Notes under the pieces: model-generated
Database searches by the model: none
What the model was told of the DNA's origin: nothing
The model's input: only the letters and a program-made list of their open reading frames with translations
NCBI GenBank assembly: GCA_043814055.1
Contig: JBDRKL010000010.1
Coordinates: forward strand, 20,685 to 84,684
DNA: 64,000 bases
Direction: 5' to 3'
Source of the DNA: an archaeon
Lineage (GTDB): Archaea; Undinarchaeota; Undinarchaeia; Undinarchaeales; JBDRKL01
Shown here: positions 57,212-62,917 of the stretch, in pieces
Position numbering within the stretch: position 1 is the stretch's first letter
How the letters are laid out: each line of letters starts with the position of its first letter
Program-made: the position numbers and the translations under genes

Positions 57212-57249
57212 GGGCCCGTTGCCTAGCTTGATACGCGTGTCTTCGCACC
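57212..57249 (+). pseudogene. degenerate tRNA-Ala(CGC) 5'-half-like fragment
   Basis: GGGCCCGTTGCCTAGCTTGATACGCGTGTCTTCGCACC aligns with the first ~38 nt of tRNA-Ala at 58000, including GGGCCCGT and the TTCGCA anticodon loop. It has no T-arm or 3' acceptor strand. Confidence 0.45.
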
Positions 57250-57315
57250 TGATACAACTGACTCTCTAATAAAGATATTTAAGCAACCTGCTCTTAATTT
57301 TTCTGAGGTGATTTT

Positions 57316-57822
57316 ATGAATCTTGGTTTTATGAAAGGTAAGCTGGATGTTTCGCTTGAAAACGTCAACTTCTCACCCGGCGATACCATAGCAGGGACTG
57401 TAAAGCTTGAGCTTAAAAAGCCGGTCAAGGCAAGAAAGCTTGTTGTTGCATTTATCGGCGAAAAGACCGTGAGCCAGGCGTCTGTCTCCATAGGGATGGG
57501 GAGTTCACGCCACAAGCCCCAGAACAGGAAGATTTGCATACACAAGTTTGAGATGACGCTGGACGGCGAGAAAGACTACACAATGGGCGAATACCCGTTT
57601 CAGATTGCCGTGCCGAGCGACTTGCTCAGCAGGAACCCGCAGGTGGAAGGCGCGCTCGGCTCAGTAGTGAAAGCCGTGCAGGTGCTTGGCGGCGGCTATT
57701 CAAGGGTGAATTGGTTCGTAACCGCATACCTTGACGTGCCCTTTGGCGTTAATGTCAGCAAGACTGTGCAGGTGAACATAAGCGAGGGCGCAGTCCAGGG
57801 CGGAAGTGTCATAAAGGGCTAG
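57316..57822 (+). CDS. arrestin-N/Spo0M-like beta-sandwich protein
   Basis: 168 aa. The N-terminal pattern FSPGDTIAGTVKLELKKPVKARKLVVAFIGE is typical of arrestin-like/Spo0M proteins. Confidence 0.45.
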   Translation: MNLGFMKGKLDVSLENVNFSPGDTIAGTVKLELKKPVKARKLVVAFIGEKTVSQASVSIGMGSSRHKPQNRKICIHKFEMTLDGEKDYTMGEYPFQIAVPSDLLSRNPQVEGALGSVVKAVQVLGGGYSRVNWFVTAYLDVPFGVNVSKTVQVNISEGAVQGGSVIKG

Positions 57823-57845
57823 TCTTTATTGTGTTTCGTTAAAGT

Positions 57846-57977
57846 GGGCCCGTGGAGCTCTCCGCCTGGCCGCGGAGGATGGCCAGGCCGCATCACTCAA
57901 CACACGTGAAACGTGTGTGCATGAATCACCGCTTTGCGGTGATCCATGTTTGTGATGCTGCGGCCTTACCGGGCTCG
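57846..57977 (+). ncRNA. 132-nt GC-rich structured RNA with a tRNA-like acceptor stem but no T-arm (identity unknown)
   Basis: 5' GGGCCCG pairs with 3' CGGGCTC. Internal helices are CTCCGC/GCGGAG, GGCCGCATCAC/GTGATGC(T)GCGGCC, CACACG/CGTGTG and GATCACCGC/GCGGTGATC. It shares the TAAAGTG-GGGCCCGT 5' context with tRNA-Ala 22 nt downstream. Confidence 0.5.
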
Positions 57978-57999
57978 TTAGCTGGAAGCCAAATAAAGT

Positions 58000-58152
58000 G
58001 GGCCCGTAGCTCAGTCTGGTAGATCGCATCCTTCGCAAGTCAGAACCTAACGGTTCCGACACCTCCCTTGCGGCTTCGCTGCTAAGAGGTAAACGTTCGC
58101 AGGAATGTTTCGAAACAGGATGAGGCCTCGAGTTCAAATCTCGACGGGTCCA
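58000..58152 (+). tRNA. tRNA-Ala(CGC) with a 79-nt intron at 37/38; no encoded CCA
   Basis: Acceptor GGGCCCG/CGGGTCC with the G3:U70 Ala identity pair. Anticodon stem CATCC/GGATG with loop TTCGCAA. T-arm TCGAG-TTCAAAT-CTCGA. Discriminator A. The intron at 58038-58116 contains CTTGCG, complementary to the CGCAAG of the anticodon loop. Confidence 0.85.
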
Positions 58153-62499: not shown

Positions 62500-62679
62500 G
62501 AAATCTTTTTATAAGTGAGAGATGATTAAGAGACGATAAAGTTTGACCAAAGGCAATCAAATTGCTCAGTAGTGCTGCAGCATAACCAATTTGATGCAGC
62601 ACCTCAAGACACATGCGAAGCATGTGTTTGCCTCACGCGCTTTGCGCGTGAAGTTTGATCAAACTTTTCATAAAAGTTT

Positions 62680-62756: not shown

Positions 62757-62917
62757 CAACCTTTTTCCGGCTTTCGGCCGCAAAAAGCTTGACCAAAAAG
62801 TCTCGCTTCGCTCGTTATTAAGGGCTTCAGCGCAGCTGAACGCCCTTGCTTTACCTCCTCAAGCAGGCGGAGTGATCAAAATCTCGCTGTCGCTCGTATT
62901 TAAAGTTCCCACCACTT

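Follow-up and report, generated by a model that had tools for sequence, protein, structure and literature searches.

Partial copies of tRNA genes (attL/attR) are known from the integration sites of integrase-bearing elements of 9-23 kb, where usually the 3' part of the tRNA is duplicated (van der Gulik et al. 2023, PMC9897764). Prokaryotes also contain small non-autonomous repeats such as MITEs and the palindromic REP/BIME elements (reviewed in PMC3184786), and a MITE-like sRNA element was described in Pyrobaculum calidifontis (PMC6009581). MITEs possess terminal inverted repeats, and their cognate transposase generates a target duplication that is short and constant in length, while REP elements rely on RAYT/Y1 transposases and produce no duplication. 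Transposed tRNA introns were reportedly found in Thermoproteales by Fujishima et al. in 2010; these are said to be bounded by bulge-helix-bulge motifs and to lie inside the tRNA genes. In Haloferax volcanii, t-elements have a role at the 5S rRNA. They are tRNA-like processing signals (mentioned in PMC4326828 and PMC4946936).

In this study we analysed a 132-nt segment at positions 57846-57977 of a window of 64,000 nt (C10:20685-84684; positions without a contig name refer to the window). The window belongs to G000, a DPANN archaeal genome of ~0.98 Mb in 14 contigs which is 82% complete. The segment lies directly upstream of tRNA-Ala(CGC), and the first-pass annotation had read it as a tRNA-like structured RNA. 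With a probability of about 0.8 we consider it an element inserted with duplication of its target, which probably forms the leader of the pre-tRNA-Ala transcript and is removed by RNase P. The inserted cassette resembles the fragments at integration sites in that a partial copy may pass for a tRNA-like gene. However, it measures ~135 nt, carries no gene, duplicates the 5' end of the tRNA together with its flank and also duplicates ends of protein genes, and no tyrosine recombinase (PF00589) was found in the genome. Similar to MITEs, REPs and BIMEs the cassette is short, gene-less, hairpin-forming, multi-copy, intergenic, modular and restricted to some lineages of its clade. Nevertheless, it has neither the termini nor the fixed-length duplication of a MITE, no Y1 transposase (PF01797) was detected in its genome, and in contrast to both groups its duplications are long and variable (12-48 nt), always located at a gene end and of fixed polarity. 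The family lacks the defining features of both integration-site tRNA copies and MITE/REP elements. As with t-elements, a tRNA-like structure stands beside an RNA gene and could be a substrate of RNase P or tRNase Z. Yet a t-element is defined by a cleavage that has been demonstrated and retains a tRNA-like fold in which one part resembles a T-arm, whereas the body of the segment is a repeat cassette without a T-arm. With the introns of Thermoproteales it has in common that related short structured sequences occur at several tRNA genes of one genome; unlike them, it is located outside the gene, shows no bulge-helix-bulge and is accompanied by a target duplication on both sides.

Structure of the segment and comparison with known RNAs

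The segment begins with the heptamer GGGCCCG (57846-57852), which also opens tRNA-Ala (58000) and tRNA-Ile (62680), as had been annotated. The 5' flank described as common to all three is shared with tRNA-Ala as TAAAGT, the last G of the annotated TAAAGTG being base 1 of the gene, and does not occur at tRNA-Ile, which has ATAAAAGTTT. Towards the 3' end, CGGGCTC (57970-57976) forms seven of seven pairs with the heptamer, including one G-U pair (G2-U71). Between these strands we found the hairpin CTCCGC-CTGGCC-GCGGAG (57860-57877), an 11-bp helix GGCC-GCATCAC / GTGATGC-(TGC)-GGCC (57886-57896 and 57952-57965) with a 3-nt bulge instead of the 1-nt bulge given before, and two inner hairpins (57900-57918 and 57919-57948). 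Neither a T-arm (GTTCRA; loop GTTCRANYC) nor a 7-nt anticodon loop was present in the sequence or fold of 57846-57977, in agreement with the first-pass annotation. RNAfold yielded -71.8 kcal/mol for the segment (z = -5.99), and none of 200 shuffles was equally stable. This stability is far above chance and its source is the hairpins of the repeat family described below. A K-turn or C/D box geometry in GTGATGC was considered by eye and rejected, the helix being plain Watson-Crick and the bulge lying on the wrong side of the GA.

ARAGORN with introns allowed made no call on 57846-57977 at the default setting or at thresholds lowered to 80%. Rfam gave no match on the segment at the gathering score or at E <= 10, the tRNA model RF00005 included; this covers SRP RNA, RNase P RNA, 5S rRNA and C/D sRNA, for which a lack of fit had been noted, as well as H/ACA sRNA. 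The identity pair of tRNA-Ala, G3-U70, is present in the real gene at 58000-58152 and not in the segment (G3-C70, G2-U71). The archaeal tRNA intron motif, a bulge-helix-bulge with a 3-nt bulge, a 4-bp helix and a 3-nt bulge, was not found around the 51-nt stretch that holds the inner hairpins, where the predicted fold has a 7-bp helix leading into a multiloop, in which 3 and 2 bases are unpaired. The 7-bp acceptor-like stem GGGCCCG / CGGGCTC is complete, yet within the chance expectation of 0.09-0.18. The 132-nt segment is not a tRNA-like gene.

A dispersed family of hairpin cassettes

BLAST comparison of the segment with G000 revealed a paralogue at C12:102352-102454 (segment positions 15-118, 82% identity), a second one at C12:18851-18927 (positions 1-52 and 104-128, without the central 51 nt) and many further matches confined to positions 15-39. 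Eight aligned copies follow one architecture, namely the hairpin module hpA, a 7-nt linker, the module hpB with the consensus arms NNCCGCATCAC / GTGATGCTGCGGNN and a short loop, TAYC and a variable tail; hpB and the TAYC tail of the segment align with the seven other copies. At our locus, where all features are on the plus strand, hpA extends over 57860..57884, hpB over 57885..57966 with the arms AGGCCGCATCAC (57885-96) and GTGATGCTGCGGCCT (57952-66), and the tail, TTACC followed by GGGCTCGTTAGCTGGAAGCCAAA, over 57966..57993. The same hpB arms with a covarying outer stem were also found in copies beside tRNA-Gly, tRNA-Pro, tRNA-Cys and elsewhere. The hpB loop of the segment contains an optional insert of 51 nt with two hairpins (57898..57948). 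This insert is present in the C12:102352 copy, which follows tRNA-Pro and has no tRNA-Ala ends, and absent from the C12:18896 copy upstream of tRNA-Ala(UGC), which is otherwise collinear with the segment. The C12:102352 copy is 92% identical to the segment over 51 nt comprising the second inner hairpin and the hpB 3' arm, and the insert alone is 89% identical over 38 nt. A tail of the form TACC-GGG(C/T)..GTT is common to the segment, C12:18896 and C10:18850 beside tRNA-Cys.

The hairpins of the first-pass annotation are real, and their assignment to parts of a tRNA is not upheld: the "D-arm" is hpA, the "extended anticodon stem" is hpB, and the hairpins at the supposed intron position are the optional insert in the hpB loop. 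The blocks CTGG, GCATC, GATGC and GGCCT, which had been taken as collinear with tRNA-Ala, all lie inside family-consensus modules.

The consensus of hpA, CTCCGCCTGNNCGCGGAG, is matched exactly at 57860-57877. In a pattern search it occurred 30 times in G000 compared to a single match of the reversed control, and 4-6 times in each of the relatives G002, G006 and G010, all three from a different family within the same order. Elsewhere in the order we detected no match or isolated matches with one mismatch (two in G003, one in G009). Over 25-26 nt, hpA and linker show 100% identity in G006 and G010 despite an identity of only ~40% for an orthologous protein, so that the core of the cassette is almost the same in lineages with strongly diverged proteins.

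The hpA stem (57860-65 / 57872-77 in the segment) is paired to 98.5% across 34 copies. In addition, loop bases 9-12 are complementary to linker bases 22-25, which in the segment corresponds to GGCC 57868-71 and GGCC 57881-84, and they pair in 96% of cells in the same 34 copies. This second helix showed 47 double changes and a covariation score of 0.94, whereas shuffles scored 0.35 and slid controls 0.21 at most. From the covariation between loop and linker it follows that folding of a single strand is under selection, possibly at the level of RNA. The stem and the loop-linker helix can form an H-type pseudoknot or alternative structures; for the copy in the segment RNAfold favours the loop-linker helix, extended to GCCTGGCC / GGCCAGGC. 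Among the cassette copies G-U pairs were not in excess over A-C (5 vs 2) and the folding energy was equal between the strands. Therefore, these data give no reason to prefer RNA over DNA as the folded molecule, and they fit palindromes acting at the DNA level. The hairpin repeat family is unusual and seems not to have been described previously. The reading as a "tRNA-like structured RNA" has for the most part lost its basis, but the element behind it is still unusual.

Modules of the cassette were also found inside tRNA introns of the same genome. In the intron of tRNA-Ala (58038-58116) the first hairpin (CAGAACCTAACGGTTCCGACACCTCCC) copies a module that is repeated in 90-nt tandem units at two contig ends (G000:C13:47454-47651 and G000:C12:153159-153184), and each of these units bears a spare tRNA-Met 3' end.

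Duplicated gene ends flank the cassette

At the segment, TAAAGT followed by GGGCCCGT is present twice, as a left copy at 57840..57853 and as a right copy at 57994..58007. The repeat, TAAAGTGGGCCCGT, comprises 14 identical bases, six of the flank and positions 1-8 of tRNA-Ala. The right copy runs on into the intact tRNA-Ala(CGC) gene (58000..58152, with a 79-nt intron at 58038-58116), which was identified by Rfam (RF00005, 42 bits) and by ARAGORN with introns. The left copy is followed by GG and then by AGCT (57856-57859), which equals tRNA positions 9-12; the duplicated pair reads TAAAGTGGGCCCGTGG / TAAAGTGGGCCCGTAG and is loosely extended by this AGCT to position 12. Regarding the proposed origin from a tRNA, the 5' end of the segment does duplicate the start of the downstream tRNA-Ala, and its interior consists of dispersed repeat modules.

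Similar duplications accompany most copies of the family. A direct repeat of the left flank with at least 12 identical bases was found after the cassette in 25 of 35 copies and in none of the controls, for which left flanks were taken 500 nt away. The lengths of the duplications ranged from 12 to 48 nt. Approximately 15 of the 40 tRNAs called by ARAGORN, about one third of the tRNA genes of this genome, bear, at a distance of 65-250 nt, a spare copy of their 5' end upstream or of their 3' end downstream. The polarity is constant, with the spare copy first, then hpA through to the tail and then the intact gene end. Consequently, the cassettes are in sense orientation at tRNA 5' ends (Ala twice, Asn and Tyr, as well as Tyr and Thr in G010) and antisense at tRNA 3' ends (Glu-CUC, Leu twice, Tyr, Val, Pro and Ile). 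Upstream of tRNA-Tyr and tRNA-Thr of G010 the spare starts match the local tRNA sequence. The family also adjoins the ends of protein genes. At the start of a GAPDH gene (Pfam Gp_dh_C, 98 bits) a cassette of the same polarity is preceded by a spare ribosome-binding site, ATG and first codons. This identical arrangement indicates that the likeness to a tRNA derives from the target and not from the cassette.

The units at tRNA-Ala(CGC) and tRNA-Ala(UGC) have an odd spare sequence in common, GTGGAGCT, where the gene itself reads GTAGCT. Therefore, the two tRNA-Ala copies are not simple independent target duplications. Moreover, both units are collinear from the spare start through the tail and show a similar AAATAAA(A)GT before the real gene, which suggests a copying of the complete unit from one tRNA-Ala gene to the other and not two independent insertions.

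Further arrangements were observed at other tRNA genes. tRNA-Ile(GAU) has cassettes of the same family on both sides (62540-62679 and 62757-62910), with reverse-oriented hpB and tail upstream, reverse-oriented hpA/hpB downstream and a duplicated CCCACCAC. Upstream of tRNA-Glu(UUC), at G000:C12:18400-18600 on the minus strand, there are two tandem units of ~88 nt which start with TAAAGTT and the first 13 nt of the tRNA, hold a T-rich hairpin and TTGAC..AAAAGAAAAG, and each end in a 6/7 complement of the acceptor strand. Upstream of our segment, a degenerate copy (~70% identity) of the tRNA-Ala(CGC) 5' exon, positions 1-38, is located at 57213-57250 and stops at the intron position. Between this copy and the spare start lies an ORF (57316-57822, arrestin-N-like, Pfam 34 bits) without a homologue among the other 12 genomes of the order, which makes it useless for synteny. 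The ORF may be part of an older insertion bracketed by partial tRNA-Ala copies.

The locus in related genomes

The Lon-C-domain gene downstream of tRNA-Ala has orthologues in nine of 12 genomes of the order (35-42% identity). In G001 and G005 tRNA-Ala(CGC) is located directly upstream of the Lon-like gene, in the same order as here, and in G006 and G010 downstream of it. In all four genomes tRNA-Ala(CGC) has neither a cassette nor an intron, and an A/T-rich promoter region lies directly before the gene. The element is not a conserved partner of tRNA-Ala, with the reservation that the four relatives compared are distant. The first-pass annotation had named absence in close relatives as an argument against its reading, and such an absence was found in part, in these distant genomes. 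An empty-site allele of the exact locus was not found, the nearest relatives belonging to other families. In an exact-pattern scan of genome contigs the junction of the spare copy and hpA gave only chance matches in GC-rich bacteria. In metagenomes the tRNA-Ala 3' end with its trailer was not matched, and hpA with its linker retrieved only the known G006 and G010 copies and chance bacterial matches. In G001 two short hairpins and a GTTGACAAA motif lie between tRNA-Ala(CGC) and the Lon-like gene (G001:C28, 1322-1500), which suggests a different type of cassette in the family of G001.

Proposed transcription and origin

Cassette-free tRNA genes of G000 have an A/T-rich box ~25-40 nt upstream. 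A candidate TATA-like box, CATAAAGG, is located at 57810..57817 on the plus strand, 29-36 nt upstream of the spare tRNA start (-36 to -29), and the real tRNA-Ala has CCTTACCGGGCTCGTT at that distance and no such box. An RNase P RNA is encoded in the same genome (C12:3873-4205, 141 bits).

We propose that a small protein-less modular element, consisting of hpA, hpB with the nested 51-nt insert and the tail, was placed at the 5' boundary of tRNA-Ala(CGC) by an insertion at the DNA level, which would have involved some enzyme or a route of recombination or repair. The element sits between two target copies, the upstream spare supplying a genuine tRNA start and the hairpins of the element itself imitating a D-arm and an anticodon stem. 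The cassette would now part tRNA-Ala from the likely promoter near 57810. Because of this position between promoter and gene, transcription would begin before the spare copy and cross the cassette, yielding a structured 5' leader of ~150 nt which RNase P would cut off. The segment may well be contained in the pre-tRNA-Ala transcript. If this holds true, many tRNAs of the organism would arise from transcripts with long structured leaders and require RNase P, and the cassettes would hint at a so far undescribed way in which DNA is inserted or gene ends are replaced. For the annotation of small DPANN genomes it means that a stable, tRNA-looking structure beside a tRNA can be the by-product of a repeat insertion.

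The family combines a fixed-polarity duplication of tRNA and protein gene ends with a strongly covarying core and no recognisable mobility enzyme. Profile searches of the 82%-complete genome with PF01797 (Y1 transposase) gave no match. The same was true for PF00589 (tyrosine recombinase, XerA-type included), which matched in all 14 control genomes, and its absence in G000 could reflect the completeness of 82%. A more far-reaching reading is a mobile or copy-and-replace element of a new kind, in which a pseudoknot-like module and a hairpin spread by duplicating or swapping gene ends without a known transposase. The duplicated acceptor strand and the cassette would then form a tRNA-mimicking leader that is handled by the tRNA-processing machinery, and the whole unit would move between isoacceptor genes by homology, as the collinear units at tRNA-Ala(CGC) and tRNA-Ala(UGC) would indicate. 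We regard this combination as rather unlikely.

Seven tRNA genes (Thr-GGU, Thr-CGU, Thr-UGU, Leu-UAG, Ser-GCU and Asn-GUU on C12, Pro-CGG on C13) have an immediate 5' flank TGTCAAC(T)...GCAGTT in common. In five of the seven this flank is preceded by a reverse-oriented hpB of the GCAGCATNAC type, and in Thr-CGU and Pro-CGG (C13) by other hairpins. None of the seven has an A/T-rich box at -25 to -40. The cassette itself may carry a transcription signal.

The acceptor-like strand and alternative explanations

The annotated 3' strand CGGGCTC (57970-57976) comprises the last C of TTACC and the six leading bases of the tail. The tail begins with GGGCTCGTT in the segment and with GGGTCAGTT in the tRNA-Ala(UGC) copy. 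The copy at the side of tRNA-Cys has a TACC-GGGTCAGTT tail as well, and nothing there is complementary to it. Therefore, the supposed acceptor strand is the tail of the cassette: the pairing that had been pointed out exists, its interpretation does not hold. The chance of a 7/7 complement (G-U allowed) anywhere in the cassette was 0.18 for shuffled sequences and 0.09 (8.6%) for pairs of non-cognate heptamers and cassettes, and three of 12 cognate cases reached 7/7, one of them in hpA rather than at the 3' end. The acceptor-like complement is not significant, and the complementarity of the tail start to GGGCCCG is fortuitous. At other tRNA genes the closure varied. The paralogue upstream of tRNA-Ala(UGC) forms 6/7 pairs, the cassette upstream of tRNA-Ser(UGA) 7/7 (with C4-G69 where the gene has A4-U69) and the one upstream of tRNA-Glu(UUC) 6/7. 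Cassettes at the 5' ends of Asn, Tyr, Glu-CUC and G010 Thr have no closing 3' strand, and the only 7/7 pairing in the G010 Tyr cassette is with a heptamer at the hpA 3' arm and linker (position 34 of 107), which is non-closing. The closures at tRNA-Ser(UGA) and tRNA-Glu(UUC) keep descent from a whole tRNA alive as a minority reading.

These closures also bear on the idea of a functional tRNA-mimic, the leading one of the first-pass annotation, in which the acceptor-like stem closes a body of several hairpins and would serve as a recognition site for RNase P, tRNase Z or the CCA-adding enzyme, giving rise to a stable small RNA with a role of its own in processing, in regulation or as a decoy, resembling the haloarchaeal t-elements. 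The complete closing stem and the very stable fold of the segment would be expected of such an RNA, as would the canonical spacing between the likely promoter and the spare start, the pairs retained at tRNA-Ala(UGC), tRNA-Ser(UGA) and tRNA-Glu(UUC) and the covariation of hpA. However, the T-arm is the main recognition element of RNase P and tRNase Z, and the segment has none. Its 3' strand is a family tail that stands beside tRNA-Cys too, with a complementarity within chance and no counterpart in the non-closing cassettes listed above. Moreover, the cassette also occurs antisense at tRNA 3' ends and at the ends of protein genes, is missing at tRNA-Ala(CGC) of the relatives and shows no enrichment of G-U pairs. 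Accounting for all of this by a tRNA-mimic appears improbable to us.

The segment might also be a gutted pseudogene, a second complete tRNA-Ala whose interior (~13-65) was replaced by the cassette and in which both acceptor strands stem from the tRNA. In its favour, CGGGCTC in the segment and CGGGTCA in the C12 paralogue resemble CGGGTCC, the 3' strand of tRNA-Ala, the spare at tRNA-Ser(UGA) has a matched C4-G69 unlike the resident gene, and the degenerate exon copy at 57213-57250 shows that partial duplication happened repeatedly at this locus. On the other hand, the TACC-GGGYNNGTT tail is found in a copy with no tRNA-Ala nearby, no trace of a T-arm, variable loop or anticodon is left, only one tRNA-Ala(CGC) is present at the syntenic site of the relatives, and target duplication explains the 25 of 35 flank repeats more simply. 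This origin is hence quite unlikely, and insertion with target duplication remains our preferred reading. Finally, an aberrant functional tRNA with multiple or non-canonical introns or with split or permuted parts is scarcely credible even in a genome with scanner-missed or mis-called tRNAs containing long or odd introns, such as tRNA-Ala(UGC) at C12:18696-18808 and a tRNA-Pro with an insert in the T-loop, as no T-arm sequence exists in or near the segment, a 7-nt anticodon loop is absent, the 51-nt insert has no bulge-helix-bulge geometry, the Rfam tRNA model (E <= 10) and ARAGORN with introns at 80% of the threshold remained silent, and the alanine identity pair G3-U70 is replaced by G3-C70.

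The two tRNA genes just named deserve a brief description. An apparent tRNA-Pro(UGG) at G000:C12:~102250-102351 on the plus strand carries a ~39-nt insert in the T-loop (GTTCAAA[...]ATCTGGG) and is missed by ARAGORN; a cassette directly abuts its CCA end without duplication. The gene at G000:C12:18696-18808 on the minus strand is called tRNA-Ser(cga) by ARAGORN and appears by eye to be tRNA-Ala(UGC) with a ~36-nt intron at the non-canonical position ~33/34.
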